A stretch of 57,387 bases of DNA from a virus (lineage: Duplodnaviria; Caudoviricetes). The notes beneath the pieces are model-generated. The model saw only the letters and a program-made list of their open reading frames with translations, did not search any database and was not told where the DNA came from. Position numbers and translations under genes: made by a program. Every line of letters starts with the position of its first letter. Positions within the stretch are counted from its first letter, which is position 1. The stretch is taken from positions 1 to 57,387 of the IMG/VR virus record IMGVR_UViG_3300044836_000005. One strand, written 5' to 3'. Of the stretch, positions 5,366 to 56,421 are shown piece after piece.

Positions 5366-8190
5366 TCGTCTTCCATCTCCTTTAGGATTTTATAAAGTTC
5401 CGGTTCAATCATAATTTGACTCTTATCTTTTTTAATCATCTTCGTATCGCTTAGGTAACCAAGGACCGTTGATACTTCGTCCCGAGTCATATGCGCCATT
5501 TCTTCCAAGTCAGGTGACCGGAAACTCTCACCATGTTTATCTAAAAAGAATTCCAAAAGTCTTGGATAACTCTTTAAGAATCGCTTGACCTGTTTCCTAT
5601 GGCTTCGTGCAATTTCCCGATTGCGTTGAATGCGCTTCGACCTACGAAGGTAACCAAAATTATCTTGTGAATAAATTCTTTCTAGAAATTCGCAAGCTGC
5701 TTCTACGTGTTCCGTTTTAACAATTAATGTTTCGCCGTCTTCGGTAGAGAACAACCGACCGGCAACTGCTACCGCTAACCGTGCGATCTTTTCCCGAGCG
5801 TTAGTGCGTTGAATCAATGGCGGGTCGTCATGGAATTTCTCACCCATAATTGTCGCCATTTTATAAACTAAATCGTAGGCTTCCTTCTGCCACTCAATTT
5901 GATTCGGCTTGCGTGACCAGACCCATAGGATTAATTCGTTGCACAATTCAGAAGTATATGTATGCTTCTTTTTCTTATGCCGTGAGTTGTTTAGAAGCTC
6001 GGCGCTTACATCGTTCATGTCAACCGACATTGCAAAATCGAAGCGTGCGATATCCTCTGGCGCTCCGATTACTGATTGCAACATATCAATTCCGGCATAA
6101 GCTCTTTCGTCTATATATTTATTAGGACGTTGGTTAGCAATCCAGATGAGCCGGCAACGGGCATCAGTTTCCCGTCTGTCAGCTTTTGTAAGTTGAGCCC
6201 TTCCACGACTCCTAACGTCGGATAATAAAGAAATGATTTCTTGACTGAGACCTGTAGCTTCGTCCAAAACCACAAGCCGTCGGTCATTAACCGTGATTTC
6301 TCCCCAGGTAATAGTCCATTCGTTTGATATTTGTTTAACTGCTCCGACAAGTCCGGCAAAGGTAGCGCCTTCGCATCCGACAACGTGGCCCAATCCGTAA
6401 TGAGCAGACAACCTAATAGCAGTTTCACTTTTACCTGTACGGGTATCTCCAACGACAATAAATTCAAGCCATCCACGAGAAATAATCTTTCCGTCTAGAG
6501 GGAAGTGCAAAGCACTATGCCAAACCAAATCCATCGCAATATGTAAATCATTGCGACCATAAATCTTCGTTACATTTACCGACAAATCATCGGCAATTTC
6601 TTCTAATTTATCTAACGGCGTTTGGTTGCGAGAAGGGTTAAAGATGGAAAGTCGAGAGATGGTATCCGTGGTAATTTTGAAGTTGTCGAGACTTGTAACT
6701 GATTCCTTAAGATCCCAAGAAAAGAATTCATTTCTTCTATCGACAGGCGAAGGAATTGTTGTTCCGATGACATTTGCCGCAGAGTTTTCTTGAGTTTTAT
6801 GACGGCCAATATTGTAAATACGGCGTTGAGTATAATCAGCTTCCTCATGCAACTTCCGATCTAGTGAAGACATAACAAATAATTCTTCTACGGTCTGCGC
6901 TTCGTCAACTTCAAAACCTAAGCGGTTACATTTCTGCGCTTCGATTTCCGCTCGCAACACTTCGATAATCTTTTCTTCTCGTACTGCAATCATCTTTGAA
7001 ATTGCTTCTACATTGTCCGGCTTAATTGTTATTTGGTGCTCGCCTTCCCAAAGCGTAGCCATCGGACATTTACGGCACTTCGGTCCAGCGTCCATATTGC
7101 ACGCCATCGTCACAACGTGAGGCACCGAAAAGGTGGGATCTTTTCTACCAATTACCGTTACATTCATTGCCAGTTGCTTACCGTTGGTGCGGCTATCCAT
7201 TGAACCAATTACTTTAACATCTACATTTTCAACAATTGGATCTTCTGGCACCGCTACCGATTCCGCTTCCCGCAGAATATTTTCAAAGCGTTGTTTTGCG
7301 TCTTTATATTTTAAGAAAAAGTCGGTTACATCACTGTGTGGGATATCCGGTAATAGCGGCGGGATCACCACCACTTCTGCAATGGGAGCGAGTGCCGAGC
7401 GGATAGCCTCGGCGCCTTTCTTTCCTTCTGCATCATTGTCATAGCAAACAAATACTTTTTTATCTTTGAATAATAAATTCCAACTATGATCCCAAGTCGA
7501 TGCGCCGTGCGTTCCACTAACCGCATTGAATCCGTTTTGGATAGCGGTTAGTGCGTCTAGCTCTCCCTCGCAAATGATAACCGTGCTGTTTGCCAAGCTT
7601 TTAATAGGGAATAACCTTGCGGGACTTCCCCATCCGGTAGAATTTTTAGTTTTCTCAGACCCGTTCGCATTCGGGTCATATTTGCGAACGTTGACAAGTG
7701 CGCCGTTGTCATCACGAATAGGTATGGTGAAACGTTTACGCTTGAGGTCAAACCCAATCTCGAATAGACGGATAGTTTCATCATTTAAGCCTCGCTTCTT
7801 TTTTAATTCAGCAAGATATTTTTTACCGTTCGGCCCAAATAAAAACTTGCACCACCCGGTAACGTGAGCCTCGGTTAAGGGCTCGATATACTCGCCTACT
7901 TTTCGTGCTTCTTTTTTAATTTTTCCGGTTTCAATATTCGTAACTGTGCCAGTTGCGAAAGGATCGTAGTCAGCTTCCCCGACTTGATCTTCGTCTAGAA
8001 TTTTAATTAAACGTGCAACTGTGCCACCTTGATTACAGGCCATGCAATGCCAAACTAAAGTATCAACATTGACACTTGCACTCGCTCCGGTTTCTCCGTG
8101 CAAAGGGCAAAGCATTCTTGCTTCACCTTTACTATTTGGGTTACCGACAATATATTTTTCAATGCGCTTGAGTACGTTTGGCGACGGCAT
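5362..8190 (-). CDS. DNA primase-helicase (zinc finger, TOPRIM, MCM-like AAA+)
   Basis: CPLH...CMAC zinc finger; TOPRIM ICEGELD and YDND; Walker A GDTRTGKS; Walker B VVLDE; IARFD arginine finger. Confidence 0.9.
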   Translation of the reverse strand: MPSPNVLKRIEKYIVGNPNSKGEARMLCPLHGETGASASVNVDTLVWHCMACNQGGTVARLIKILDEDQVGEADYDPFATGTVTNIETGKIKKEARKVGEYIEPLTEAHVTGWCKFLFGPNGKKYLAELKKKRGLNDETIRLFEIGFDLKRKRFTIPIRDDNGALVNVRKYDPNANGSEKTKNSTGWGSPARLFPIKSLANSTVIICEGELDALTAIQNGFNAVSGTHGASTWDHSWNLLFKDKKVFVCYDNDAEGKKGAEAIRSALAPIAEVVVIPPLLPDIPHSDVTDFFLKYKDAKQRFENILREAESVAVPEDPIVENVDVKVIGSMDSRTNGKQLAMNVTVIGRKDPTFSVPHVVTMACNMDAGPKCRKCPMATLWEGEHQITIKPDNVEAISKMIAVREEKIIEVLRAEIEAQKCNRLGFEVDEAQTVEELFVMSSLDRKLHEEADYTQRRIYNIGRHKTQENSAANVIGTTIPSPVDRRNEFFSWDLKESVTSLDNFKITTDTISRLSIFNPSRNQTPLDKLEEIADDLSVNVTKIYGRNDLHIAMDLVWHSALHFPLDGKIISRGWLEFIVVGDTRTGKSETAIRLSAHYGLGHVVGCEGATFAGLVGAVKQISNEWTITWGEITVNDRRLVVLDEATGLSQEIISLLSDVRSRGRAQLTKADRRETDARCRLIWIANQRPNKYIDERAYAGIDMLQSVIGAPEDIARFDFAMSVDMNDVSAELLNNSRHKKKKHTYTSELCNELILWVWSRKPNQIEWQKEAYDLVYKMATIMGEKFHDDPPLIQRTNAREKIARLAVAVAGRLFSTEDGETLIVKTEHVEAACEFLERIYSQDNFGYLRRSKRIQRNREIARSHRKQVKRFLKSYPRLLEFFLDKHGESFRSPDLEEMAHMTRDEVSTVLGYLSDTKMIKKDKSQIMIEPELYKILKEMEDE

Positions 8191-8193
8191 GAT

Positions 8194-8448
8194 TTACCGT
8201 CCGGACAATTGATCGCTCTCGAACATCAAGCTACGCAATCGTCCGAATGTATTAGCAAATACTTTTGGTTCTACCTGGCAGTCACCGAGCCAATAAAATT
8301 TAATAATTACTTCTGCGGCTTCGTCAACTTCAAATTGAAAATAGCAGGTGCGCTTTCGTCCTTTTTCTTCCCATCGTGTGCCTTGGCATTTGTAACCACA
8401 AGTCTGCAGCGTGGTCGCCAAAGCCATTTCGTCGGTTTCGAATAACAT
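8194..8448 (-). CDS. Hypothetical protein (DUF5659-like)
   Basis: 84 aa; FETDEMALATTL and VEPKVF resemble small phage proteins found beside primases. Confidence 0.6.
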   Translation of the reverse strand: MLFETDEMALATTLQTCGYKCQGTRWEEKGRKRTCYFQFEVDEAAEVIIKFYWLGDCQVEPKVFANTFGRLRSLMFESDQLSGR

Positions 8449-8475
8449 ATCTTTCCTGTTTCTGTTGATAGACGG

Positions 8476-8509
8476 AACGGGAGAGCGAGCCGAAACCCAC
8501 TCTCCCGTT
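8476..8509 (-). terminator. Stem-loop, probable terminator after the SSB-like gene
   Basis: AACGGGAGAG...CTCTCCCGTT inverted repeat with a TTCG-containing loop. Confidence 0.55.
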
Positions 8510-8535
8510 AAAACGATTCGCCGTTAATTAATTAT

Positions 8536-9306
8536 TTAGAACGGTTCTTCGTCGGCCCCGTCCGTATCATCAGTGGTAACGTCTTCGCCCTCTTGAGCTT
8601 CTAGAATAGCAGCGGGCACGTCTGCCCAATCGTCAATGTCGTCAAGGTCCAAACCAAGCGGCTCGGCAATTTCGTAGAGAGCGTCGTAATCCTCAGCCTC
8701 AACGAGTGCAACTAGTTCTTCCTCGGTCCACAAAGCGTCCGGATCTTCGCCAGCATCCTCGTCGGCGGTATCAGTGTCATCATCGGTGTCAGGCTCATCA
8801 CCATTACCGCCTAAAGCCTCGTCATCAGGATCAACCCAAGGCCCCAAAACGCTTGCAATTTCTGCGTATTGCTCATCGTCAGCCGAACGTGGCGAGCCAT
8901 CAATATTATTCTTTTGCCAACGAGTACGAATAAGGGCCTTGATCCCGACTACTTCGTCAGTATCAAAAGCTCCGTCAAATTCTTCCTCAAGACTCTCAGT
9001 AAGTCCGATGGCATAAGCGAACTGCGCTCGTTGTGAACCGGCCGCTTCGGAAAAAGAAACATAACTACGCAAGCGTGAATAATTCTCCGGCGGTGGCATA
9101 CCATCACGACCAACGCCCACAAGATCCCATTGCACCATTAAACGAGGACGCTTTTTATCCTCTTTGTTATCCGGACCTTTAGAATATCCAGGCTCGCAAG
9201 AAACAATTTGTGCAACATAAACATTAGGCGGCGGCTGTACAAACTCGCCATACTTCTTAGCCTGCTCTGTATCAGCCTTTGTTACCTTGAGCTTTACCTT
9301 AGCCAT
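8536..9306 (-). CDS. Single-stranded DNA-binding protein (DUF669-like)
   Basis: PPNVYVAQIVSCE beta-rich N-terminus; long acidic C-terminus ending EEPF; follows the ATPase and nuclease pair. Confidence 0.65.
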   Translation of the reverse strand: MAKVKLKVTKADTEQAKKYGEFVQPPPNVYVAQIVSCEPGYSKGPDNKEDKKRPRLMVQWDLVGVGRDGMPPPENYSRLRSYVSFSEAAGSQRAQFAYAIGLTESLEEEFDGAFDTDEVVGIKALIRTRWQKNNIDGSPRSADDEQYAEIASVLGPWVDPDDEALGGNGDEPDTDDDTDTADEDAGEDPDALWTEEELVALVEAEDYDALYEIAEPLGLDLDDIDDWADVPAAILEAQEGEDVTTDDTDGADEEPF

Positions 9307-14726: not shown

Positions 14727-15386
14727 TCATGCTGGCACCATTTCCACTTCGCAAGCATCTTCCATACAAATTACGTCAATGTTTTCTCTGCGGTGGTGGA
14801 TTGTGAAGCCACAACTAGGGCAAATGAATTTGTTTAGTTTACGTGGTTTAGGCTTTTCAGCTTGTCCCGGCAACTTAAATTGTGCCAACAAATCAGTTAG
14901 GTCGGAATTCTCGCTTACCCAATCGTGCCATACCTCCGTGTGGTCTACGTGGTTGCCTTTCCGGCCGCTAGTGATAATCCCGTAGTTACCCATTTTGTTA
15001 TGAAATTCGTCAGTATGGAAATTGCGTTTACATGGTCGGCCGACAAATGTTTGCCACATATGCACCACTTCATGTATCGCCGTTTCTGCAGCTTGCATAC
15101 CGTTCTCGTGTGCATACGGATTTAAGTTAATTCGGTTGACCATCCGGTAACCGTCTTGGCTCTGATAAAAGCCCATTCTAGAGCTTGAATCTTTATCCAT
15201 AGAAATTACTGGATAAGGAAAATTCCTTTCATCATAAAATCTGTCGATGGTTCGGTCAACGAATTCATGTAGAAGCTTAAAGAATAAACCTAGCTCTTTA
15301 TCCTGCTCTTGGAATGCCCTAAGATTTTGCGTTAATTGAGCAGCGCTAATATTAGCGATTGTTTTCCCAGATTTTTTTGTCGGCAC
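14727..15386 (-). CDS. SprT-like zinc metalloprotease
   Basis: HEVVH zincin motif, downstream H..EF, C-terminal CPSC...C....C zinc ribbon. Confidence 0.8.
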   Translation of the reverse strand: MPTKKSGKTIANISAAQLTQNLRAFQEQDKELGLFFKLLHEFVDRTIDRFYDERNFPYPVISMDKDSSSRMGFYQSQDGYRMVNRINLNPYAHENGMQAAETAIHEVVHMWQTFVGRPCKRNFHTDEFHNKMGNYGIITSGRKGNHVDHTEVWHDWVSENSDLTDLLAQFKLPGQAEKPKPRKLNKFICPSCGFTIHHRRENIDVICMEDACEVEMVPA

Positions 15387-36468: not shown

Positions 36469-37686
36469 TTAAACGTAAGCCGTCGGAATGACGTAGCTAC
36501 CGGATGCCTTGATTTGCATAACAACACCAGCACCACGGTGCCGAACGCCAGTACCAAATCCGTGGTTATAGAAAGAATCAACCAACGGATAATCGTTGTC
36601 ACGGCCCTTAACGAGTCGCAAACCACGAAGACCAGCGTTTACATGCTCACGCAAACCAACCGGGTTAGTTGCATTTAGCTCACCGCCAGTAGCGAAAGCC
36701 AGCAAATACCCAGCAGGAATATAATCATTGTCGATGATGGTAAACGGACCATACGAACCAGCGACGGTCAAGCCCTGATAAGTAGCAGCCGGCTGACCGC
36801 CCTGAATTCCGCCGACATTCTGCGGAAAGAGGAAGGGCGGTGCGCCTTGAGCCGGAATAAAGTCATAATTCGAACCAGTAGCGACACGGAAAGTCCGCAT
36901 AGTCGCAATCTCTTGGCGGTTAGCCAAAAGAACTAATTTCGAACCATTGGTGACTCCATAGCCCTTAGTGGCGAGCTTGGTTTCGATAGCGTCCAAATCC
37001 CCGCTATCAACCGTTGCGCCGCCACTTACGAGGTAATGAGATTCCGAACCGTTGTAAGTATAATTAATATATGTGGGAGGAACCGTGCCGTCACCATTAT
37101 AGAAAGGATAAACGTTATAGTTCGTTCCACGAATATCAGTCGTGCGGTTCGTGTTATTGAAAATAGCCTTGAAAATCTTCACGAAAAGCAAACGATTGTC
37201 AGCCTCGATCGCTGCGTTATTCAAAGCAACAACTTGAGCCGCATTTACTTCCGCAAGGAATTTCCAAGAGTAACGAATTGCAAGGTCATACCACTTGAAA
37301 TCATAACCCATTGAGAAATAATCCGGAGTGAGAGCAAGACCCTTCGGCTCGCCATACTCAGAAGCTTCCTCGAAATCGTCGCCAGTAATCTGAGGCACTT
37401 GCTCAGTCGGGCTAGTAACGGGGAAGGTCAAAAGATTAATTAAAGCGGTACGACGAGCATTCGCCATAGCCATAGTGCGCTGAAATTCCGTCCACAAATC
37501 ATTTAATGGGCGGCCGTCCAACGTTTGAGTAAGAACGTCACCTTCTGAGTTAATGCCCCTAGCCATACCGGCAAGGCCGATCGAGCGATCGAAAGCACTA
37601 GTCAAATCAAAAGGATCTTGCGTCATATCAATGACGATCAATTCCCGTTCCACTTTTTCGATATAATTCTTACGAATCTGTCCCAT
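36469..37686 (-). CDS. Major capsid protein
   Basis: 405 aa after the scaffold and decoration genes; FEEASEYGEP; GFGTGVRHRGAGVVMQI; downstream hairpin. Confidence 0.85.
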   Translation of the reverse strand: MGQIRKNYIEKVERELIVIDMTQDPFDLTSAFDRSIGLAGMARGINSEGDVLTQTLDGRPLNDLWTEFQRTMAMANARRTALINLLTFPVTSPTEQVPQITGDDFEEASEYGEPKGLALTPDYFSMGYDFKWYDLAIRYSWKFLAEVNAAQVVALNNAAIEADNRLLFVKIFKAIFNNTNRTTDIRGTNYNVYPFYNGDGTVPPTYINYTYNGSESHYLVSGGATVDSGDLDAIETKLATKGYGVTNGSKLVLLANRQEIATMRTFRVATGSNYDFIPAQGAPPFLFPQNVGGIQGGQPAATYQGLTVAGSYGPFTIIDNDYIPAGYLLAFATGGELNATNPVGLREHVNAGLRGLRLVKGRDNDYPLVDSFYNHGFGTGVRHRGAGVVMQIKASGSYVIPTAYV

Positions 37687-38054
37687 TATTGGTGCCTCAC
37701 AATCAATCGGGTTGCCTCAACGGTATGGCCGACTCGAATGTGAGTCGCATCCGCCACGGTAACTCCGAGTGCTCCGGTAGTCGTTAGTGCCGTAATAATT
37801 GTTCCGGCAACCAAAGGAGCGACGCAATCAACGACTTCTCCATCGGTCATTACGTCAACAATGTCACCAGCTTTAAGATTACGAACAGTCGCCACTACTC
37901 CGACGATTCCGGTATTCCCAGCACCCGGCACAACTCGGCCATTGACGTCCAAGCCAACCCCAATGGGGTTACCAGCGGAAGTCTTTGCCAAGTCAGCAGC
38001 TAAAGGCGCTCGGAAACCGCCACTAACAGGATCGTACTTGTCGTACCTAGCCAC
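37686..38054 (-). CDS. Capsid decoration or minor capsid protein
   Basis: MARYDKYDP..GGFRAPLAAD; Gly/Val-rich; between scaffold and capsid genes. Confidence 0.7.
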   Translation of the reverse strand: MARYDKYDPVSGGFRAPLAADLAKTSAGNPIGVGLDVNGRVVPGAGNTGIVGVVATVRNLKAGDIVDVMTDGEVVDCVAPLVAGTIITALTTTGALGVTVADATHIRVGHTVEATRLIVRHQ

Positions 38055-38099
38055 GGTATTCCTTTCTTTTCTGTTGAAGGTTTTTGTTTGTTTAATTAA

Positions 38100-38879
38100 T
38101 TAACGGCGCAAAGCCGGGTATTGCTCCATGAGTTTGGCATCGTCAAACTCACCTTTTTTGCCTTTTTTACCATTACCGGAGCGGCCACTGGCCTGCCTCG
38201 TCGGCTCGGTATCATCGTCGGTTTCGTCATCGTCGTCGGAATCTTTATTTTTAGATTTCTTCGGTTTTACGAAACCCGGCTTGGCTTTAACAAAAGCCTC
38301 AACTGCGTCATCTAGTCCGGAGACGCTTCCGTCCTTCTCAATTTCAATATCGTCACTATAGCGCCTAAGCACAAGCTCAAGCACATCTTCGGTGTCAACG
38401 TTGAAACGATATTCCTTTGCGTCAATGACGTCACGGAATTTCTGACCAATAGCTAGTGATCGGTTGGTGCTTTCAAGCTCCGTGATCCGGCTCTTTAGCT
38501 CATCCCGCTCTTTTGTGACCTGTTCAAGTTCCGGCTTGTCTTTATTCTTAATTTCATTCAGCTCTTTTTCGAGCTTTTCCGCCCGCTCCCTAGCTTCCCT
38601 TGCAGCTAACCGACGACGCTTATTCTCTGCAATAAGGCGTTCTTTTTCGAAATCCTTTTTAGGATCTTTCTTATCTTTTGATTTCTTATCTTCTACTTCA
38701 TCGTCGTCTTCATCGTCGTTGTCATCATCATTATTTTCATCATCATCATTTTGGTCATCGTCGTTGTCTTGTTCATCATCGGCCGGCATACCAGCTAATG
38801 ATTCTGTTTTGAAAGCGAAGCGCAAATCAAAAGGATCGGCTCGCCGTACTAACTCTAGGATTTCGTCTTTGGTCTTCAC
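38100..38879 (-). CDS. Scaffolding protein
   Basis: Acidic tracts, coiled coil, C-terminal YPALRR; synteny. Confidence 0.8.
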   Translation of the reverse strand: MKTKDEILELVRRADPFDLRFAFKTESLAGMPADDEQDNDDDQNDDDENNDDDNDDEDDDEVEDKKSKDKKDPKKDFEKERLIAENKRRRLAAREARERAEKLEKELNEIKNKDKPELEQVTKERDELKSRITELESTNRSLAIGQKFRDVIDAKEYRFNVDTEDVLELVLRRYSDDIEIEKDGSVSGLDDAVEAFVKAKPGFVKPKKSKNKDSDDDDETDDDTEPTRQASGRSGNGKKGKKGEFDDAKLMEQYPALRR

Positions 38880-38900: not shown

Positions 38901-39749
38901 TTAATCTTCACTTGAAACATAATCATCGTAGTCACCGGCTTTAAGTGACTTAATAAACTTTTCTCTAGGGACGGTTTCTACGGTTAGGTAACAAAAGCAT
39001 TGTGGGTGAGGTCTGTCCGGAACCTCACCTTTATTGTAAGTGCCGACTAAATCGTTACATTCATCGGGACGCGGATGGGAACCGGAAAGGTTCCATACAA
39101 AAGATTCAACCCAAGGCTTTTCTTGAGCCAAATCAATTGTCATTTGGTGATGGGCGTTATTAATTTCTGTGCGAGCCAAACGTCTTGCTGCATATGCGGC
39201 TCCACCTGGCACATCGGCTGAATAAAAATCTCGCACTGCGTTGGCAAGTTCTTTTGCTCCGGTTTGCAAAGCAAGGTGCTGTTCAATAATTTTTCCGACT
39301 TGCTTAACTGTGACACGACCATTCGCATAAATTCTCTCAGACAAAGTAAAACCATGCGTGCGACGTGCGACAATTGCCCTCGCTCCTGCCTCAGCTCTAG
39401 TATAAATACCTCTTTCATAATTCTTAATAATAGCTTGAGGCATACCCAGCTTACTATCGTATGAAAGACTTTGTTTAGCGGCCAATTCCGTCGCACTGGA
39501 TATCCCTACTTTCGTAACTTGTTCAATATTCAGCCACATTTCTTTTGATAATGGGCCTAAGCCTTTTGCGACCTCCGCAATGCGAGCAGCCTGCCCGCCT
39601 TTTAACGCATTTTCTGCAATGATGCGATGGGCGGATTTACTAGCTTGGTTCAAAATATCTGCAAGCTCTTGATTATAGATTCCTTCCGTTAATCGAAGCG
39701 GTTGGACCAACCCATATTGCCGTGAAAGCTCGTCCGCCCGAATTGCCAT
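38901..39749 (-). CDS. MuF-like minor head protein
   Basis: RRLARTE, WNLSGSHP..DEC, HPQCFC. Confidence 0.8.
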   Translation of the reverse strand: MAIRADELSRQYGLVQPLRLTEGIYNQELADILNQASKSAHRIIAENALKGGQAARIAEVAKGLGPLSKEMWLNIEQVTKVGISSATELAAKQSLSYDSKLGMPQAIIKNYERGIYTRAEAGARAIVARRTHGFTLSERIYANGRVTVKQVGKIIEQHLALQTGAKELANAVRDFYSADVPGGAAYAARRLARTEINNAHHQMTIDLAQEKPWVESFVWNLSGSHPRPDECNDLVGTYNKGEVPDRPHPQCFCYLTVETVPREKFIKSLKAGDYDDYVSSED

Positions 39750-41284
39750 TATGCACCAGCATTAGGATCAGGTGGAGCTAATGAATTTAACTCCGCATCT
39801 ACCCTTGTTCCGGTCGCATCTTGTGCCACTTGCCCGATTGCGGTTTGTTCCTTCACAATTTGGCCAAGCATAAGGGTTGCATCGTCAATAGTATACCCGA
39901 TTTTAGCCAATTCGCCATAACACCACTCAGCAGATACCAGCTTTGCAGTAAATAGCGCAAGAATTTCTTTGAATCGGTTAGCTCGATTCTCAGGAACGTG
40001 ATCCCCGTAAATTGGAATGAATCTTGTGTTTTCAATACCACTACTAAGCGTCGGTTCATATACCAAGATCCAGTTACGGAGATCAAAGAACATATTGCTT
40101 AAAACATCAGTAATAACCAGTTCTTTTTCTTCTGCTCTGGAAAGCATGGGCGATAATTCAATAAATAGGGCAATTCCAGACTCCGCAACCGCCACATCGA
40201 CTCGACCTTGAGCAATTGCCGGTTGTTGTGCGGCTTGATCCAACTGCTCATGCAAATATTTAAGATGATCTTGGTAAGGCGAGACACTAGAAACACCAGA
40301 AACACGCTCAAATGTCTTTCCGTCCGGTAATTCAATGACTCGACCAGGGCCAAGATTCCATGTTGTTGCCTGACCAGTGATCGGATCTAATGGTGTACCG
40401 GCATCGGTTGTATAAACGCCAATTCCGTCCATTGCTAATGATAATTCTTCGTCAGAAATTCCTTGATTGATTGCGGCAATCATTCTCTCAAGGCCAGCAA
40501 GCTCCGAGACGCCATAAACCTGTCCCATAACTTGCACATTGGGAATATTATATACCGGCAATTGGGTAATTCGTGGGTCTAAAGTAGTTACTGCAGTAAC
40601 TATATGATCCGGATTTGCCTCTTGATCCATGCCGGGACCGCCCCAGTCATCAATCTTAAAAATGGCGTCTTCACTTGTGATTGTTTGTGTCCCATTTGGA
40701 GAAACAACCTTGCGATATGTGAGCCGACGAATCCACGGCTTGCCTTCATCATCGACATATTGGTCAACTAAATGGCAACCCGTAATCTCAGAAACATTAT
40801 CAGGATTATAAATAGGAAAATATCGTGATGGGTCAATTGCTTCAATGGTGATACGTGAACCGTCCGGCTTAAGAGGATCAGCGAAGATATGCCAAGTCCA
40901 GTCACCTTTGATTAATCCGTAACGCTTATTCATAGAAAATTGTGAATAAAAACGCTCACGACGAAGCAACTCAGTCATTGTAATCATTGCTTGGTTGCGT
41001 TCATCCGGAGTACCGTATAAAGGGTCACAAATCATACGCATTTTCGGCGCTAAATACCGATGCATCGTCTCAATGATCTTGCGACCCGACGGCACATAGA
41101 TTGGGTTATCTTCCTCACCTCTAGCTAAGAGCTTAAAAGTGTTCGGATAATCCCAATAAATTTGCTCGAACATTTCATAAGAAGCAATGCGCCGTTTTTC
41201 GAAGTCATTACTAATCCAAGTCGGTAACGATGCCGCTGGAATTAACGGCGCAACTGTACTATATGAGTCAATAATATTTGACAT
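39749..41284 (-). CDS. Portal protein
   Basis: 511 aa upstream of MuF; YGVSEL, AESGIAL. Confidence 0.85.
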   Translation of the reverse strand: MSNIIDSYSTVAPLIPAASLPTWISNDFEKRRIASYEMFEQIYWDYPNTFKLLARGEEDNPIYVPSGRKIIETMHRYLAPKMRMICDPLYGTPDERNQAMITMTELLRRERFYSQFSMNKRYGLIKGDWTWHIFADPLKPDGSRITIEAIDPSRYFPIYNPDNVSEITGCHLVDQYVDDEGKPWIRRLTYRKVVSPNGTQTITSEDAIFKIDDWGGPGMDQEANPDHIVTAVTTLDPRITQLPVYNIPNVQVMGQVYGVSELAGLERMIAAINQGISDEELSLAMDGIGVYTTDAGTPLDPITGQATTWNLGPGRVIELPDGKTFERVSGVSSVSPYQDHLKYLHEQLDQAAQQPAIAQGRVDVAVAESGIALFIELSPMLSRAEEKELVITDVLSNMFFDLRNWILVYEPTLSSGIENTRFIPIYGDHVPENRANRFKEILALFTAKLVSAEWCYGELAKIGYTIDDATLMLGQIVKEQTAIGQVAQDATGTRVDAELNSLAPPDPNAGA

Positions 41285-41563: not shown

Positions 41564-43345
41564 TTAAAGGAGTGAAGCGACACGAAGACCAATGAGAAAT
41601 GCCGTCGAACTTGAAAAAATAGAGCCCGCCATTGTTGCCGGCATTGTTCCTGTATTGCCAGATTTAGAAGCCGATCCGGTAATCGAAGCGGATTGACTGC
41701 TATACGGAAGTTGCAAGCCAATTGCACAACTACGCATAGTGGGAGCGTTTGTCGTCCACAATTGTGTAGTTCCTGTCAACCAATACCAGCCAATTTCTAA
41801 AGTAACAGGGGTAAAAGTAACAACTTTGAAACCAATTGAGTCGGCCGAGCCCAATGCAATGGCGCCAGAGTCTTGGATGAGCGTACCCATCGAGCCGTTA
41901 GCAGCATCGGCATGGTAAAGCGACGCTCGAAAGACTGCGCCAGTATCGCCTAATACAGTACATTCAGCAATGAATGCATCGACCGTCATTCTTTGCATTA
42001 CATAAACTAATGCACCTCTAGTCTGTCCGGCCGCTAATGATTCTTTGAATGTATTAACTGAAGCTCCGTTAGTCGGACGAAGATAATCGCCAACCGACGC
42101 TTTTGCAACGAAGATCGGAGTAGAAAATCCGGTTGCTGCATAATTACCCGGACTTTGCTTCACTTGGCCATCAGAGCCAATTGAGAATCTGTCCTGCGTA
42201 TCAGTTGAAACTTTAGCTTGAAAAGCGGGGAGACCAACGGCACCTCTTGTGCTTAACAAACCGCCGGAAATCGTTGCGCCAATTGAAGTAATTGCTAAAC
42301 CATCGGCAATAGTTACTAATCCAGTTGCCCTAGAAATTGATAATGGCACGTCGATTTGTACACTGGCATCCGTATATCTAACAACCTCTAACGAACTACC
42401 AACGTTCGAGCCACCTTCTGCAGTATTGTTCGCCCGAATGTCCCATCGCAAAGCATTCGAAGTTGTTAATCTGAAAACTCTATTTTGCCCAGCAACACCA
42501 TCTACAGCAAAGGCACTACCACCAGTCCCGATCATCCTTAATGTGGTAGCAGAATAACGACTTATTGTTGTATCAACTGCGTTCGTTGTTCCAGCACCAA
42601 AGTTGATTGATCCGTCGGCACGTATCAATACTCTCGGATTTGCGTCCGCAGTGATCCCGACTGCAAGTGCAGAGTTGGCGCCAGCAGCACGGTAAATAGT
42701 TTGCACATTTGTAAATAAGTTGGCACCGTTGATTAATGGAACGTTCGCACTCAAGCGAGCATCTGCCAATGATCCCGTTAGGTTTGCGGCATCTCCATTA
42801 AATAAAACCGGCCTGCCCGTTAAATCATTATATAATCCACTAAATGCAACCGGAGCTAATAGCGCTTGCAATGCAGCCGATGCACCAGCCACTTCGAAAT
42901 CAGAAGCGGGATGAGTTGCGGAAGAACCAAGCCCTAAGTTTGTTCGAGCAGTTGCGATATTTGTAAGTGCGGAAAGGTTTCCTTGCGCCAACAATACCGA
43001 GCTATCAAGGCTGACCTCTTTAGTGGTTGCATTATAAAGAACAGGTGCAACCGCACTTAAAAGTCCTGATGGCCCCGTCGCTCCCGTTGGACCAGTAGCT
43101 CCGGTTAATCCGATAACACCTTGCGGGCCAGTCGCACCAACCGCACCAGTTGCTCCCGTAGGTCCTTGCGGACCAGTTGTGCCAGTAAATCCAATTGGCC
43201 CTTGAGCACCTGTATTTCCTGTATCACCTTTAATTCCTTGCGAACCTGGCGGGCCGGCTGGGCCTTGCGTACCGATACGAGCAATACGTGTCAATTCTTC
43301 TGTTACGACAATTGTATTTGGTTCATCTTCGACGATTAGACCCAT
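41564..43345 (-). CDS. Collagen-like fibre protein
   Basis: More than 20 consecutive G-X-Y triplets; [12 protein letters not shown] fibre motif; beta-rich C-terminus. Confidence 0.8.
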
Positions 43346-43668
43346 TGCGTTACTCCGCTTCTGATTTGAAAGTCGCCGTGGAACCAGTTTGTCTCAGTGC
43401 CTAAAGAATCCATGACCACTAGGTCGTAACGCCATGTACCTACTCCGATATCAACGCTCTGCGTCTTATCAAAGGTCAATGTCAGTTTGCCTAACACTGC
43501 ATTTGTAACTGTGCAACCAATAATAAAGTTGGTCGTGCCGTCGGTTACTTGTGCTTTCACTTGCGAACCAGTGAGGTTGATCGCCGTTCCATCTCCGTCC
43601 GTTAATTGAATGTTACGAACGAGATCCTCGTTGTTATAAACAATAAAATCATATGGCGCTGATATCAT
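43336..43668 (-). CDS. BppU-like fibre adaptor
   Basis: [12 protein letters not shown]...WRYDLVV...GDF. Confidence 0.65.
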
Positions 43669-45134
43669 CTTGTCACCTTTGCGGTTGTAACTACGGCGTG
43701 CCCACCCTGCGTAGAGGAAGGAGGGCCGAAATAACCTCGGAAAAATCTACCTAATGCTTCGGGTCCGTGATCGTCTTTGTCTAGTGGTTCTTCTTTATTA
43801 GGACGCATTTCGTTATTGTTGTCAGGATATCGGTACTCATTCATTTCCCGAATCATCTCCGAACAACTGCGATCTATATAAAGTTTCGCTCGCTGGTCTT
43901 CAAACTTCGCATGTTTCGGGAATGTCTTTAATGCCTCACGAATATATTCTAATCGGTACTTCTTTTCGCCGCCGGTACCTGTATTTGCTTGAATATGTAA
44001 CTTATTTGAGAGCACTGAGGTATCACCAGGGCCAGCCGGATCAGGATAGAAGGTACGCACCTGTTTAATCAAAGGAGCGGTGGCTAATTCAGAGGCAATG
44101 ACTCCGATATCGGTCTGTGTTTTTCTGTATTCCCCTAAGACATAAACAATATCGTCAAGTGGATCAATCTGAATCCAGAGCCACACGAACGGATTGGACC
44201 AGCCATAGTCACAAGCGGCATAAAGCGGCCATTCGGGATTATATTTCAGGTCCGCAACGTGGTATTCCTCATCAAAATCCTTAAAAACTCGGCCGACATA
44301 TTCGCTAAAGTCTGCGGCGACCTCTTGGTTAAACAATTCTCTAGACATATCCGCAAACATTGCATAAATTTCTTCGTCAACACCGAGCATCATAAGAATT
44401 TCGTCGGTAATTGGTATGTGGGCTTCCTCTAATTGGCGCATTTGTTCGATTGCTTCGAAACTCGCACCCATAGGAAACACATACTCATTTACCCATGACG
44501 GCATCCGCCAAGATTTCCACCGCTTATTGTTAGGATCTTGCCCTAATTTCCATAATTCATAGAAATGGTTGCGGCCTTCCGGAGTTGAGCTATGCAGTGC
44601 CCAGCCTCGGAAGTCAGCGAGAGTAGGACGAATGTATTTTGTCCAAACAGACGCTTTCATTTTAGCAGCTTCGGCCATAATCACGCCGTGCAAACCTTCG
44701 CCAACGAGAGTACCGGGATACTTGGCCGACATACCGTGAACTAAAAACTTGCCTTTCCAAAGCGAAATAGAAAGCGATCCCATTTCCGGATTGTTATAAG
44801 TTCCCGGTTTATCGAAAGGTACTCCGAGCTTCTTTAATGCGTTATAGCAAACACGAAATTCCTTTTCACTATCGGAATACTCAGGGCCGACAATCCAAAA
44901 CTCTCTACGAATTCCTAAATCTTCCAACCGCATTAATTGCGTATGTGTATACAGCCCTTCGACTGTTAACTCTTGACCACCAATTACGGACTTACCAGTA
45001 CGACGGCCAGCCGCAACGACTTTGTTTCTTTCTAATGCCTCATGCACTTTCTTCTGTGCTAAGTGCGGGTGATAATCGACTGCCTCGAAAACACCTTCCT
45101 TGGCAAATAATCGTTGCGGCTGAACCATTGTCAT
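43665..45134 (-). CDS. terL: Terminase large subunit
   Basis: Walker A AGRRTGKS; GEGLHGVIMAEAA; STPEGRNHFY; nuclease DYG, DPA, DDHGPEAL. Confidence 0.93.
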   Translation of the reverse strand: MTMVQPQRLFAKEGVFEAVDYHPHLAQKKVHEALERNKVVAAGRRTGKSVIGGQELTVEGLYTHTQLMRLEDLGIRREFWIVGPEYSDSEKEFRVCYNALKKLGVPFDKPGTYNNPEMGSLSISLWKGKFLVHGMSAKYPGTLVGEGLHGVIMAEAAKMKASVWTKYIRPTLADFRGWALHSSTPEGRNHFYELWKLGQDPNNKRWKSWRMPSWVNEYVFPMGASFEAIEQMRQLEEAHIPITDEILMMLGVDEEIYAMFADMSRELFNQEVAADFSEYVGRVFKDFDEEYHVADLKYNPEWPLYAACDYGWSNPFVWLWIQIDPLDDIVYVLGEYRKTQTDIGVIASELATAPLIKQVRTFYPDPAGPGDTSVLSNKLHIQANTGTGGEKKYRLEYIREALKTFPKHAKFEDQRAKLYIDRSCSEMIREMNEYRYPDNNNEMRPNKEEPLDKDDHGPEALGRFFRGYFGPPSSTQGGHAVVTTAKVTR

Positions 45135-46342
45135 TACGGAGCTACCTCGACAACCGTCGGCTCACTACCGATGGTAAGCGTCAACGCACTAACACCTTTC
45201 GAAGACTTCACAATGTCGTCCTGCATTACGTTGCGAATAATGTAATCCCTCGGTCGATCAAATGCCAGTGTGGCCGTTGACTTATTATTTACAATTTGGT
45301 CTTGGTGTTGCTGATTGTCGCCAGCCGTTGCATCGCCGTTAAGCCATAAGTGGACAAGAGTTGTTCCGTCGGCCTTCTGGCTCATCGTGCTTCGGATATT
45401 GGTACCACCAATTGAAATTTTAGGATCAACTAATTCATGGTCCCAAGCAAAGTCAGATGGGTCTTTATTCCATGCAAGTAAACGACGCATAGAGTGGAAA
45501 GCCGGCTTACGTCGGCCGGTTGCTTGCTCCACCAAACCGAAACCGTTTTCCCACGGCGATGAATTAAGTTTGCTAATCAACAGATAATTAATTGTTGCTA
45601 CAAACTTACCAGTGCGTACATGCTCAAGGAACATTGAAGGAGTAAGCATCGCTTGCACTTGCTCAGTTACCGGAGGATGACCGCCCGCTTGTCCCATTGC
45701 CGTTGAAAATCCACACTCAGTAGAAATACCACCAAGTGTTTTCATAAGATTAATCTTCGATACCATGTAATCCATTAAATACGGACGATGCATAATGCCA
45801 CCGCCATAATCATGAAACGTGGTGAGGTCCAAGCCGGGAATAACTCCCATTCGATCAAAACCCGGTCCCAATGTATTCGCCATTGACGGAGAACTAATTA
45901 ACAAAGTGCTAGGCTTTCCTGCTGCATTAACTGCTGCAATGACTTTCTTGCAACGATCAATTGCCAAGCTCAAACGGAATTCGAATGTGGAATTGCCAGG
46001 TAATTCGTACCCATCAAATACTTTTCCGTAACCAGCAGCGTCTAGCTCATTGTCTAATTCAAGAACACGAATCCATGCCTCGTGCCGTTTAACAAAATCT
46101 GCAGTTTGTGCAATAGATTCATCCCGAGCGTCTGATACCCAATCACACCAAATACCTAGGTTGTTGTAAAGCTTATTCAATAAAGCTGGTCGATCATTAG
46201 CACCGTTGGTGTCTTGGTCCATAGACCAACCAGTACGGACCCATCCTAAACCAAGCTCGGCACAAGCGTCATACGTCATATTAAATAATACTTGTGACCA
46301 CGTATAATGAATATCAATTCCGCAGCCGAATGACTTGGCCAA
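45134..46342 (-). CDS. Glycoside hydrolase (clan GH-A-like), probably the frameshifted C-terminal part of 46432-46911
   Basis: WVRT, DNE acid/base, FHDY, STECG nucleophile, FGLV...RKPAF; weak TTG start with the frame open upstream. Confidence 0.75.
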   Translation of the reverse strand: MAKSFGCGIDIHYTWSQVLFNMTYDACAELGLGWVRTGWSMDQDTNGANDRPALLNKLYNNLGIWCDWVSDARDESIAQTADFVKRHEAWIRVLELDNELDAAGYGKVFDGYELPGNSTFEFRLSLAIDRCKKVIAAVNAAGKPSTLLISSPSMANTLGPGFDRMGVIPGLDLTTFHDYGGGIMHRPYLMDYMVSKINLMKTLGGISTECGFSTAMGQAGGHPPVTEQVQAMLTPSMFLEHVRTGKFVATINYLLISKLNSSPWENGFGLVEQATGRRKPAFHSMRRLLAWNKDPSDFAWDHELVDPKISIGGTNIRSTMSQKADGTTLVHLWLNGDATAGDNQQHQDQIVNNKSTATLAFDRPRDYIIRNVMQDDIVKSSKGVSALTLTIGSEPTVVEVAP

Positions 46343-46911: not shown

Positions 46912-47610
46912 TTAAGTTTCCTCATCTTCATCATAGGAGTCTGCTTCGATTACACCTGAACCAATAGAAACAATTGATCCCTCAATTGCGGTTTGCCAGC
47001 TTTCTTTATGCGCCGACACTTCGATCTTTTCAGGTGTCTTGCCCATTACTCTGTTCATCACCATATCAACTGCTTTTAATTTATCTCTTGGCTCAACGTT
47101 CTTATCTTTAATAATATCCGTAAGCATTTGCACTGCGACGCTTAGGTTTTCACGAAGCATATTGTTTGCATTAATTAAGGCACGCCGAACCATTTCGTCA
47201 TAGCAAGCCTTCGGGACAATGATGGGATCGAGCCCAGCAAACTTATTGTTCTTGTCTCTGCGTCGGCCGTGCTGTAATTCTTCATCGTCCCATTCTTCGA
47301 CGCTATCTTCGCCCAATAATACCTTTGTGGTAGAAGTACCTAGACGCATAAAGGCACGCTCATTTCCTTCTAATAATCCTTCGACTTTCTTTTGCTTGAA
47401 TCCTTTTAATGTATTGCGTGCCGTAGATCCAAGCTCATTGTATTTCTTTTGTGGTGCTTTTTCTTTTGGGGGAGCAGGAGGACCGGCATAGATCCTTGGC
47501 CTGCCTCTGCCTCGCTTAACTGGCGGTGGCTCCGGAGGTAAGTCCGGAACAACCACCAATGCTTTTACTTTAGGAGCAGCTTTCTTAGTTGGTTTCTTCG
47601 CCGTTGTCAT
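46912..47610 (-). CDS. Probable terminase small subunit
   Basis: WDDEELQHGRRRDKNNKF; DKLKAVDMVMNRVMGK; AT-hook KRGRGRPR; upstream of terL. Confidence 0.6.
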   Translation of the reverse strand: MTTAKKPTKKAAPKVKALVVVPDLPPEPPPVKRGRGRPRIYAGPPAPPKEKAPQKKYNELGSTARNTLKGFKQKKVEGLLEGNERAFMRLGTSTTKVLLGEDSVEEWDDEELQHGRRRDKNNKFAGLDPIIVPKACYDEMVRRALINANNMLRENLSVAVQMLTDIIKDKNVEPRDKLKAVDMVMNRVMGKTPEKIEVSAHKESWQTAIEGSIVSIGSGVIEADSYDEDEET

Positions 47611-52413: not shown

Positions 52414-53094
52414 TCATGGCGCCACCTTTTCATTTCCGATCCAAGCGTCGTAGGTTGCCGGCATCTCTCGCTCAAAATCCTTAGCAATTACTTCGGCATA
52501 TTTCCGAATTTCCAACAAGGCAGTAGGCGCCCAGCGCAAAGATAAGAAATTCATAAGAGAGCGTGCGTTAACTGTCCAATAGAATTCGGTATACATCGCC
52601 ACCGGCAGAACAGCTCTAGCTAGTTCCTTGGCAATACCTGCGTTTAGCATTCCTTGGTAAGACTCGAAAGCGTTTTTACAAATTTCGGCTATTTCAATTT
52701 GGACAACTTTTGACATATATTCAGACGTTTGCTCATAAACGTAATGGCCCGGCTTACCAACCTGCGTCCGCACATCTTCCGCAGCAGGGATATACCACTC
52801 AGCCGGGGCTTCGGTATAGCGCATAGAAAATTCATTAAAAGAACTAATGCGATGCCGAATCCACTCACGCATAACAAAGATTGGGCACTTGCAATGGAAA
52901 GTAAATGTGTTGTGCTCGAACGGAGTACCGTGTCGATTCTTCATTAAATAATTAATCAGTTGCTCATCTTCATAGCCTACTGATTCCTTGCGCTTACCGA
53001 ATGAAACTCTGGCGGAATTAACGACACTCAAGTCTCCACCCATATGTCCTTCGAAGCGAACGAATCCGTGATTCAAAACTTTGATCTCATCCAT
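52414..53094 (-). CDS. thyX: Flavin-dependent thymidylate synthase
   Basis: HGTPFEH; RHRISSFNEFSMRY ThyX motif; ELARAVLP; NARSLMNFLSLR. Confidence 0.97.
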   Translation of the reverse strand: MDEIKVLNHGFVRFEGHMGGDLSVVNSARVSFGKRKESVGYEDEQLINYLMKNRHGTPFEHNTFTFHCKCPIFVMREWIRHRISSFNEFSMRYTEAPAEWYIPAAEDVRTQVGKPGHYVYEQTSEYMSKVVQIEIAEICKNAFESYQGMLNAGIAKELARAVLPVAMYTEFYWTVNARSLMNFLSLRWAPTALLEIRKYAEVIAKDFEREMPATYDAWIGNEKVAP

Positions 53095-53875
53095 TTTTCT
53101 CGCTCCTAACCGAATCAACAACTGTTAAAATTCGAGTCCATAAATCTATTGGAAGTCCGACTTTTGTTCCATCACTAAGCCAAACATCAAGAATAATGGA
53201 ATATAATTCGTCTTCCTCAACTAACCTTTGCTTCAAATACATGAGCAAATCCATAGTTTCTTCGTAAGCATCAAGTAAAGACTTGCGGCCGTTGAATGCT
53301 TGCAAGCCGGTGCCGTAGCGTTTGATGCCGACTTGAATTCGTTCATTAATATCTTCGATAACTAAGTCTTGAATAAATTTACCATCATTTACCGTAGGCA
53401 AGCCTTGCGAATCGCCTTCACGATTAGCTCGCTCAGGAATATTTACATTCTCTAAATCGGAATGATTACCGGATGGCATATCAATCTCGCTTTCCTCCGG
53501 AGGTACCAACGGTCCGCCGACTTCTAAAAATCCCTCACCATCTACGGGAATTTCCATAATTTGTCCAGGCTTTTCATCCATACCCTCAAGCATTTTAATA
53601 TTTTCTTGCCACTTTTGGAACGCTTGCCATTCATTTTGAAATTCTCGCCACTCAGGAAGAAACGATGTGAAATGGTCCAAATAAAGTCTTAAAGCCGGAG
53701 ACTCTGCATCTCGATAAATCTCAAATATTTTCTTTGAGGACGTAATTTCAGCGCCAGTAGAGAACGGCACCGTTTGTGTCTTTTCAATTAAATCAAATCG
53801 CCACATTGGTAATGCTTCCCATCTTCCGAAATGTGCGTGAACCATGAACGTGCTTGGTGGGTGCCAAAGCTGCAA
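53087..53875 (-). CDS. Hypothetical protein with a possible all-alpha NTP pyrophosphatase-like C-terminus
   Basis: ERIQVGIKRYGTGLQAFNGR..L.DAYEETMDLLMY; start uncertain. Confidence 0.5.
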   Translation of the reverse strand: MQLWHPPSTFMVHAHFGRWEALPMWRFDLIEKTQTVPFSTGAEITSSKKIFEIYRDAESPALRLYLDHFTSFLPEWREFQNEWQAFQKWQENIKMLEGMDEKPGQIMEIPVDGEGFLEVGGPLVPPEESEIDMPSGNHSDLENVNIPERANREGDSQGLPTVNDGKFIQDLVIEDINERIQVGIKRYGTGLQAFNGRKSLLDAYEETMDLLMYLKQRLVEEDELYSIILDVWLSDGTKVGLPIDLWTRILTVVDSVRSEKNG

Positions 53876-54554
53876 GCGGGAGTCGTGCGAAAGTTTCCCG
53901 AGTCGATTCGAATTGCTGGCTAATGTTTCCTTCGCTACTCCGATAAATTAAATATCCTCCTGGTGTCATAACGAATGGCCGATTAACTTTGCCCATCCAA
54001 TCAAACTGCTTTTCTTTACTTTCACGGTAGAACCATTGTTCAAAAACAAAGTTTGATACCGCTACTTGCGTTACAACACCTTGAGCATTTTTCACAACAA
54101 TATTGTACGAATCACCTTGTACGGGGTCGCCAACTTCTAGGGCTACTTGTCCACCATCGCTACCTTCGTCGGCCCAAAGCTGGCAGAAGGGATCAATTGC
54201 CCACTCGCACACTTCATGGGAAACAACCGCCGAAACAGATAGCGATCCATTAAGAATTGTTCCACCATTATCCAGAACAGGATCAACAAACACTCGGCCA
54301 TATGGAACACCAAGCGGTGATACATCGTGGTAACCGAGAGCGTTCGCAATGTCCGGAGTATCAACGATAAGAATTGGTACAAAATTAGGGTGAAGGTGCG
54401 CCTTTGCCGTGGCAGTTGAAATAACCGGCCGGCGGTTGCTAGGCCAACCAATAGCCAAGTGAGCGGCTTGCACACGCATGGCCTTAGCGATGGAAACTAG
54501 GTCGTCTTGCTTGAGTCGCTTGGACCCATTAACTAGAACAATTTGTACGGTCAT
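53793..54554 (-). CDS. Putative zinc metallopeptidase-like protein
   Basis: ALGYH, SHEVCE (HExxE), EVGDPVQ, VSNFV. Confidence 0.6.
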   Translation of the reverse strand: MTVQIVLVNGSKRLKQDDLVSIAKAMRVQAAHLAIGWPSNRRPVISTATAKAHLHPNFVPILIVDTPDIANALGYHDVSPLGVPYGRVFVDPVLDNGGTILNGSLSVSAVVSHEVCEWAIDPFCQLWADEGSDGGQVALEVGDPVQGDSYNIVVKNAQGVVTQVAVSNFVFEQWFYRESKEKQFDWMGKVNRPFVMTPGGYLIYRSSEGNISQQFESTRETFARLPLAALAPTKHVHGSRTFRKMGSITNVAI

Positions 54555-55815: not shown

Positions 55816-56421
55816 TTAATAACCTTTGTGGAAACAACCGGGCCACGCTTCGTCACCTTCACTCCGCAGCCCTACCTCAGCAACTAGCTTTTGCTGCGTA
55901 GAGGATGCGTGATCGGCTCTGTCCGCAAACTTTAATCCGCCATAATTTTTCCAAAATTGTTTAGTCATTTGTAGACCTCCGTAATAACCATTTCCTGTAT
56001 TGGTGTCCCACTTCGGAGGGTTATGGCCTGTCTCACAAACTGCTCTACGGTCCCAATCTCTCGACCATGTATAGCTGCAAGAACCTTCCGGATGAATCAG
56101 CGTCGGCGGATAAAACGGCAGACCGTTAAGGCAATGCGTCGGCCACGGTTCGCAATGCCAGACCCAAGCAAGCGTTCCATTAATATCTTTTAATTCTTGC
56201 ACAAAGTGTGAGCCATCAAAACAATAAGGGCTAACAATTTTCGGCTCTGGCGGTGCATCTCGCTCTACTTGAATTCCACCAGGGGTACCGTCCGATGGGT
56301 CTACTTGTACTTGAGCGTGAGCACTAGGGACAAACAAAATAAGAAAAGTAACTGCTAAGAATACAATTGGCAGACCTCGCCAAGATTTTACTTTGAACCA
56401 AATATTATCAAATGTATTCAT
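55816..56421 (-). CDS. Secreted resuscitation-promoting factor (Rpf)-like transglycosylase
   Basis: Signal peptide ending AHA-Q; C-terminal WDRRAVCETG..WDTNTGNGYYGGLQM..W..YGG..A..AS..QQ..VAE..EG..AWPGC. Confidence 0.9.
   Translation of the reverse strand: MNTFDNIWFKVKSWRGLPIVFLAVTFLILFVPSAHAQVQVDPSDGTPGGIQVERDAPPEPKIVSPYCFDGSHFVQELKDINGTLAWVWHCEPWPTHCLNGLPFYPPTLIHPEGSCSYTWSRDWDRRAVCETGHNPPKWDTNTGNGYYGGLQMTKQFWKNYGGLKFADRADHASSTQQKLVAEVGLRSEGDEAWPGCFHKGY

Follow-up and report, generated by a model that had tools for sequence, protein, structure and literature searches.

Classical prohead proteases (HK97 gp4, ClpP/S49, and T4 gp21 types) cut the major capsid protein (MCP), the scaffold, and core proteins at a shared site. 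The removal of a leader common to capsid and scaffold is already documented in staphylococci, where leaders of 13 and 14 residues on the capsid and scaffold proteins of phage 80alpha are removed by the host protease Prp, which cleaves the F-A bond of a site also present in ribosomal protein L27 (PMC5744158). Here we analyze the N-terminal leaders of the scaffold and MCP encoded by the IMG/VR virus record IMGVR_UViG_3300044836_000005 (57,387 nt; estimated completeness of 89%), the whole of which is referred to as the window. An earlier note on this DNA had claimed that both proteins carry a common DPFDLxxAF…LAGM leader, analogous to that of 80alpha with a different motif. Both the leader and the analogy stand, and the present comparison adds what that note did not cover, namely solved structures of related capsids, co-variation of the leaders across the family, and a JAB/MPN protease that is found in most relatives but not in the window. 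Based on gene sequences, we consider it somewhat probable that the leader is a translated propeptide on both proteins and that it is removed during head assembly in the window phage.

The scaffold N-terminus reads MKTKDEILELVRRADPFDLRFAFKTESLAGMPADD and the MCP N-terminus MGQIRKNYIEKVERELIVIDMTQDPFDLTSAFDRSIGLAGMARG. The genes, their leaders, and the identical stretch within them are located as follows:

36469..37686, minus strand: MCP gene, 405 aa, a Patience/Adjutor-type capsid protein with the HK97 fold (phrog_3990, 2.5e-128; PDB 8giu_E, 1.1e-103, and 8saj_A, 4.1e-100)
38100..38879, minus strand: scaffolding protein gene, 259 aa (phrog_4866, 3.4e-14; PF06810, 7.4e-4, under the cut-off)
37564..37686, minus strand: MCP leader, residues 1-41 (…DPFDLTSAF…GLAGM), with M41 at the junction to the conserved core A42-R-G-I-N
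38787..38879, minus strand: scaffold leader, residues 1-31 (…DPFDLRFAF…SLAGM), directly followed by the start of an acidic run
37603..37617, minus strand: DPFDL codons of the MCP leader, a 15-mer identical to the scaffold copy
38823..38837, minus strand: DPFDL codons of the scaffold leader, identical to the MCP copy

The similarity covers 31 aligned residues (KVERELIVIDMTQDPFDLTSAFDRSIGLAGM versus KTKDEILELVRRADPFDLRFAF-KTESLAGM) and is longer than the motif first noticed. Its Smith-Waterman score of 51 over these 31 residues (MCP residues 1-44 against scaffold residues 1-45) was matched only once when the MCP leader was shuffled 20,000 times (mean 19.2, standard deviation 3.8), and the scaffold scored best when the MCP leader was compared with the other minus-strand open frames of at least 60 aa (n = 131). 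Among the minus-strand frames of the window, the motifs [DNE]P[FWYL]D[LFIMY]xx[AS][FWY] and DxFDL are confined to these two. At the nucleotide level, the reported identity of 15 nt is exact and unique, as the 15-mer GATCCTTTTGATTTG occurs exactly twice in the window with no further site even when up to two mismatches are allowed; searches of shuffled sequence gave a mean of 0.36 matches, and at least two matches in 4 of 100 shuffles.

The two solved relatives of the window MCP are the capsids of mycobacteriophage Patience (8GIU) and of Adjutor (8SAJ) (PMC11965321), and the alignments to both (8giu_E and 8saj_A) begin only at query residue 36-43. By MCP homology, a minor capsid gene directly upstream, and the shared leader before a conserved N-arm, the window head is a member of the Patience/Adjutor-type capsid module. 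The N-terminal-most peptides of the scaffold-like Patience gp21 are reported, with no explanation offered, to start at residue 35, after a Gly and at a non-tryptic position (PMC4324244). The cryo-electron microscopy (cryo-EM) models, trimmed for lack of density, start at T20 in the Patience MCP and at N28 in the Adjutor MCP (PMC11965321). In the gene sequences, both Patience ends fall directly after PIFGG (gp21, …LPIFGG|T35; gp23, …FPIFGG|T20). The corresponding sequences are GLALSG|HD and GLSG|HDN in PBI1, which belongs to cluster D and has an MCP N-terminus like that of the Adjutor chain in the region aligned to the window MCP; the cluster D model starts three residues after GLSG. On alignment, the window leaders are homologous in position to these leaders removed in cultured relatives. 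The earlier suggestion of maturation by leader cleavage is thus upheld for relatives, in which homologous leaders end exactly where the Patience data place the mature ends; for the window phage itself, cleavage is predicted from genes. In the available parts of their text, neither PMC4324244 nor PMC11965321 connects the ends of gp21 and gp23 or attributes the cleavage to JAB. One published statement, from 2014, conflicts with the 2025 model that starts at Thr20, since the Patience capsid subunit gp23 is stated to be cut between residues 82 and 83 (PMC4324244; L007, genes at 6315-7100 and 7926-9128).

The leaders were compared across 80 uncultured loci, eight cultured phages, and the window. 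Nearly throughout this set, the MCP and scaffold of one phage carry a common short N-terminal motif, which varies between phages:

Patience: scaffold LPIFGG, MCP FPIFGG
Send513: scaffold PPFGG, MCP LPFGG
PBI1: scaffold GLALSGHD, MCP GLSGHD
Madi: scaffold KFFAFGGDGG, MCP KFFAFGGDGG
Wojtek: scaffold SIFGA, MCP PIYGA

The co-variation test began from 89 loci with an MCP call, of which 85 also had a scaffold call; 68 were kept after dropping MCP cores at least 85% identical, and 59 of these had at least 28 upstream residues. Among these 59 genomes, the mean score of the MCP leader against the scaffold was 30.3 within a genome and 23.5 between genomes, and the observed sum was reached in none of 20,000 permutations (p = 5e-5). 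A phage's own scaffold ranked first in 12/59 and among the top three in 19/59, a ranking that is blurred because the motifs are short, the set includes close relatives, and some automatic scaffold calls are wrong.

Leaderless MCPs occur in the same family (L056/L059, L061, L062, L075, L077, L097, L098, L100, L102, and L103). They start with M-(A/P)-(K/R/Q/G/H)-G, with a strong Shine-Dalgarno (SD) sequence and a stop a few codons upstream, and the scaffolds of these phages, except in L056/L059, start straight in the polar/acidic region. A leaderless MCP is paired with a leaderless scaffold in L062, L075, L077, L097, L098, L100, L102, and L103. Judged by sequence, there are three states in this capsid family: a leader with JAB, a leader without JAB, and no leader.

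The window belongs to a subtype in which both proteins carry the box Φ-D-L-(R/T)-x-(A/C/M)-F. The subtype includes G001 (L025/L026), L028, L029/L134, L031, L032, L034, and L038, and probably also L047/L048, L132, and L138, so that the motif recurs in both proteins of related phages, where the earlier note had advised looking for it. G001 is a complete, terminally repeated record of 54.9 kb (L022-L024) and the closest complete relative, with an MCP 63% identical to that of the window. L134, a metagenome contig of 54.8 kb with a GC content of 45%, is a second low-GC phage of this subtype, and its first 19.9 kb encode both a scaffold with …NPWDFTQAW…YRAYADG and an MCP with …QLFDYQSKF…FRAAARG. The head modules of the subtype have only the terminase, portal, MuF-like, scaffold, minor capsid, and MCP genes in common.

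In subtype members, the junction lies 6-15 residues past the box. In our alignment A2, the DLxxAF box occupies the same columns as ELVDLxxLG, a box found in MCP leaders of the Gly-Gly type, and A39-G40-M41 of the window stand opposite the A-G-G that precedes ARG in those leaders. M41 shares its column with the Met that initiates leaderless MCPs (e.g., MARGINSSG), and GLAG-M of the window aligns with GLSG-H of Adjutor. The mature end is predicted at M41 or A42, the start of proteins needing no processing, because the junction column coincides with both the end of Gly-Gly leaders and the leaderless initiator Met. Both window proteins have L-A-G followed by M, which fits a scissile bond at G|M or M|A (compare the Gly-Gly or small-Gly ends at P2-P1). 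Several JAB-less phages have a Met at this junction in the MCP (5/23 leader-bearing rows of A2) and likewise in the scaffold, namely the window, L034, L050, L064, and L104. This Met may be a relic of an earlier initiator, or it may belong to the site of another enzyme.

A small protein with the JAMM motif (E…HxH…SxxD) is encoded by all eight cultured phages checked:

Patience gp19: JAMM motif; listed as ‘Protease’ in the gene table of PMC4324244
Send513 gp11, PBI1 gp11, Madi gp8, and Shrew: JAMM motif; PF14464 match
Wojtek gp10: annotated metalloprotease; JAMM motif read
Krampus gp3: PF14464, E 3.4e-4; JAMM motif read
Wollypog: PF14464, E 0.005; JAMM motif read, with an insertion

Among the uncultured records at least 97% complete, JAB was found in 8/12, seven of them by Pfam and G006 only by a broader custom profile hidden Markov model (HMM). 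The JAB of G006 (L105-L107; frame ~25512; HSH…SPED) was missed by PF14464 at E <= 1 and scored 2.7e-12 with the custom HMM of 17 phage JABs; therefore, Pfam alone undercounts phage JAB genes. The four near-complete records without JAB are G013, with a leaderless MCP, G009 and G018, with leaders that end in …MM|A(R/K)G, and G001. No JAB was found in nine leaderless loci or within the metagenome contig loci L131-L140. The JAB/MPN protease is likely the cutter in most relatives, and a JAB-dependent Gly-Gly leader system is proposed here, to which the window, having no JAB, would not belong. In a full-text literature search, no paper was found that ties JAB or JAMM enzymes to head maturation.

If the window leaders are propeptides, translation from the upstream starts would give them a length of about 41 residues in the MCP and about 31 residues in the scaffold. 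A helix-like stretch, the DPFDLxxAF box, and the LAGM junction are common to both leaders. As a family-wide, phage-specific tag, the propeptide would most likely be clipped from both proteins at LAG|M or beside it, perhaps at LAGM|A. Removal would leave the MCP N-terminus (M)ARGIN, as in leaderless relatives. The cutter would be a host protease or an unrecognised phage enzyme (a weak candidate being an SprT-like zincin), because searches of the window turned up no JAB/MPN protease, no Prp, and no prohead protease of a classical type.

Several observations weigh against this reading. JAB was not found in the window with PF14464 at E <= 10, by tblastn with three phage JABs, with two custom HMMs, or by a JAMM-motif scan; Prp (PF04327) was absent from the record at the default E and at E <= 10; and Pfam and PHROG identified no protease among the 59+7 window proteins. 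The exact bond is uncertain by one or two residues, the junction residues vary within the DLxxAF subtype, and that subtype is known from uncultured genomes alone. Some automatic scaffold calls are wrong (e.g., L037, L060, and L063) and add noise to the co-variation test. L056/L059 carry the leader on the scaffold only (…QFGGFTMG|LEEEED). Moreover, 80alpha is reported to manage without cleaving either protein but to require the leader of its scaffold for assembly (PMC5744158); thus, a leader can matter uncut.

One alternative is that the leaders are translated but kept, or cut only incidentally, and that the shared peptide is a docking or folding tag recruiting MCP and scaffold to one and the same partner (one another, the portal, the MuF-like protein, or a chaperone) in procapsid nucleation. 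We regard this as possible but unlikely. In addition to the 80alpha precedent and the scaffold-only leader of L056/L059, it would fit the lack of a detected protease in both the window and the complete G001, and the length of the shared part (31 residues, two boxes), which exceeds what a protease site needs. However, the homologous leader is absent from mature Patience gp21, as reported, and from the ordered MCP in the two cryo-EM models, leaderless relatives assemble without it, and the junction lies exactly at the start of the leaderless or mature proteins of relatives.

Removal of the propeptide in the window phage calls for an enzyme. The absence of JAB is probably real, because the complete G001 also lacks it and the window is collinear with G001, with its two ends mapping to neighbouring G001 regions; the same tests recover JAB in 8/8 isolates and in G006. 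An incomplete record is accordingly an unlikely cause of the missing JAB. From the same collinearity and adjoining ends, little sequence appears to be missing, and the window is probably a nearly whole genome opened at another point, rather than 89% of one. No classical prohead protease (S78, S49/ClpP, or U9/U35) lies between the portal and MCP, where only the MuF-like, scaffold, and minor capsid genes occur, and none was detected elsewhere in the window by Pfam and PHROG scans. The earlier impression that no typical prohead protease gene is present is confirmed by these scans, in which the PHROG label ‘head maturation protease’ falls on MuF-like families only.

Neither ribosomal protein L27 nor Prp was found in the record, which is therefore a virus record without host genes. 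A Corynebacterium control genome gave no match to Prp, and Prp is not known from actinobacteria. The window leaders (…FAF|KTE and …SAF|DRS) have no F-A bond in the motif, and the box ΦDLRxAF presumably bears some resemblance to the L27 site.

The MuF-like protein is the sole conserved protein of the head module without a known activity and is kept in 5/7 DLxxAF-type loci that reach that far. It has no relative in the PDB, and no evidence was found for or against protease activity. In the literature, MuF is described as a virion-packaging domain fused to effectors. Some phages of the G001 type have extra genes between MuF and scaffold, which encode a protein with an ADP-ribosyltransferase-exoenzyme domain (~470-500 aa, with a helix-turn-helix at its start; L026 3666-5287, L028 2612-4338, and L032 3100-4808) and a small Cys-rich protein; neither is a protease, and both are absent from the window, L029, and L034. 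A protein with an HExxE motif, taken to be the one encoded at 53793-54554, had been put forward as a protease candidate and finds no support, as it has no family match and its neighbours in the Atlas are hypothetical phage proteins. A phyletic-profile search for a gene common to the JAB-less, leader-bearing genomes returned nothing clean, as high-GC frames were too noisy.

The SprT-like protein had been offered as another candidate, and it gains weak phyletic support, with Pfam scores under the cut-off:

14727..15386, minus strand: SprT-like zincin (HEVVH and a C-terminal Cys ribbon) in the replication module (PF10263, 1.7e-5; 25.1 bits against a cut-off of 25.6)

As a special case of propeptide removal, this zincin would replace JAB as leader peptidase in JAB-less phages, which we consider doubtful. 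In its favor, the protein has an HExxH motif and a Zn ribbon, and an orthologue is encoded by the JAB-less G001 (145 bits, HEIMH). Among 26 related genomes, PF10263 at E <= 1e-5 was found only in the JAB-less G001 and G008 (the latter at the Pfam level only); there was none in isolates, and JAB-positive records showed only weak matches in G006 (E 6.6e-4) and G016 (E 0.009). On the other hand, no Pfam score reaches the family cut-off, the gene is surrounded by replication genes, the JAB-less G018 lacks it, the matches in G009 and G006 are other zincins on inspection, and a common replication module may be all that unites the three carriers. The SprT-like family is otherwise linked to DNA-protein crosslink repair.

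A broader version of propeptide removal, which we offer as speculative though a shade less doubtful than the zincin alone, is that interchangeable maturation enzymes act on a homologous leader. In most relatives, the deubiquitinase-like JAB would act on Gly-Gly leaders, and the DLxxAF…AG-M subtype, having lost JAB, would be served by the SprT-like zincin, whose distribution is roughly complementary, or by an actinobacterial host protease; the leader would have been grafted onto a formerly leaderless gene, whose initiator would survive as the junction Met. If this is true, the host protease alternative would be one not yet known to act on phage heads.

Any propeptide requires that the leaders be translated, and translation from the upstream starts is well supported by sequence context. 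The scaffold GTG is preceded by AGGAG, the stop codon of the preceding gene runs into the MCP ATG (TAATG), which also has a GAGG 8 nt ahead of it, and there is no SD-like match before either Met of LAGM, so the earlier judgement that both leaders look translated holds. Moreover, the L002 MCP aligns to residues 1-405 of the window MCP, leader included. It is very unlikely that translation instead begins at the LAGM Met in both genes, with the upstream similarity being non-coding or only occasionally translated. Leaderless relatives do begin in the same column (MARGINSSG in L062), and the recurrence of a junction Met in both proteins of five JAB-less phages would suit such a start. However, SD-like matches in relatives precede 5/6 leader starts and 9/9 true leaderless MCP starts, compared with 1/6 MCP junction Mets and 2/7 scaffold junction Mets. 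A start at LAGM would also open gaps of ~110-120 nt in an otherwise tightly packed operon, the same-subtype members L031, L032, and L038 have no Met between leader and core, and conservation is by residue and not by codon.

It is most improbable that the similarity is held at the nucleotide level, whether by a control element in RNA or DNA that precedes the two late genes or by recent gene conversion between two nearby segments: the 15 identical nt and a local excess in the window (the same codon at 9/12 identical residues versus 5.2 expected) would favor it, but at 216 identical leader residues in 23 genomes the codon was the same at 92 versus 99.9 expected (z = -1.19), the LAG codons differ between the two genes (TTA GCT GGT and CTT GCC GGT, all differences synonymous), and the motif varies between phages yet matches as peptide within a phage. 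Since residues are matched while codons are not above expectation, selection acts on the peptide rather than on RNA or through gene conversion, which disfavors the RNA control motif raised in the earlier note.

All genes of the window are on the minus strand, with a GC content of 42-49%. In addition to the scaffold and MCP, the head module comprises the following genes, listed from the first:

43665-45134, minus strand: large terminase, first in head-module order
39749..41284, minus strand: portal protein (phrog_64, 6.2e-30)
38901..39749, minus strand: MuF-like minor head protein, 282 aa (phrog_25879/1657/115)
37686..38054, minus strand: minor capsid protein, 122 aa (phrog_5042, 1.7e-37; PDB 8saj_3 gp_16, Minor Capsid Protein, 5.3e-25; 8giu_1 gp_22, 3.3e-6)

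The order MuF, scaffold, minor capsid, and MCP is common to the window, Patience, Send513, and PBI1. The scaffold consists of the leader, the acidic run, a coiled coil, and a C-terminal YPALRR, and both its position and this C-terminal motif are as in the scaffolds of relatives; a tblastn search of cultured phages with the window scaffold gave no match. The window MCP matched 161 records of cultured phages, all with actinobacterial hosts and all at an identity below 60%, as well as eight loci in bacterial genomes, the genera of which we take to be actinobacteria. The window also encodes an Rpf-type transglycosylase domain and DUF6011. The host is probably an actinobacterium of unusually low GC content, because the relatives are actinobacterial and the window has this Rpf-type domain and DUF6011.

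Outside the head genes, the window encodes a DnaE-like Pol III alpha (1045-4269), a primase (zinc finger and Toprim) fused to an MCM-like P-loop domain (5362-8190), ThyX (52414-53121), and the protein with the Rpf-type transglycosylase domain (55816-56421), a replication and host-interaction set that is typical of actinobacteriophages, yet the GC content of the window is only ~45%. A 593-aa collagen-repeat, fibre-like protein (41564-43345; PF01391, phrog_6320) is encoded between the large terminase and the portal, an unusual site for a tail-fibre-like gene. A 402-aa protein (45134-46342) between a small-terminase-like gene (46912-47610) and the large terminase has no Pfam or PHROG match.

Such leaders characterise a whole capsid family, in which two members have solved structures, 161 are cultured actinobacteriophages, and many more are uncultured, and the leaders co-vary within each phage. 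The window contributes a JAB-less variant, DLxxAF…AG-M, and the division of the family into three states makes the role of the leader, the enzymes that remove it, and the swap or loss of a maturation protease testable in SEA-PHAGES isolates; the window represents the least understood state, a leader without a recognisable protease. For annotation, the starts of MCP and scaffold genes in the Patience/Adjutor capsid family are easily placed at the wrong Met.

Compared with known systems, the window resembles the classical prohead systems in that one short site on several head proteins would mark N-terminal removal, and differs from them in that no protease of those families was detected. Like 80alpha, it has a separate scaffold and an HK97-fold MCP with a short shared N-terminal leader, and its head module does not encode a protease. 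The 80alpha leaders carry an F/A site, whereas those of the window are 31-41 residues long and carry the boxes DPFDLxxAF and LAGM, with a cleavage that is predicted from genes. The closest likeness is to Patience and Adjutor, with which the window shares the MCP and minor capsid families and a scaffold/MCP leader that ends at the same alignment column. In those phages, the leader ends in Gly-Gly or Ser-Gly and is accompanied by a JAMM protein, whereas the window has LAG-M, an extra shared DPFDLxxAF box, and no JAB.

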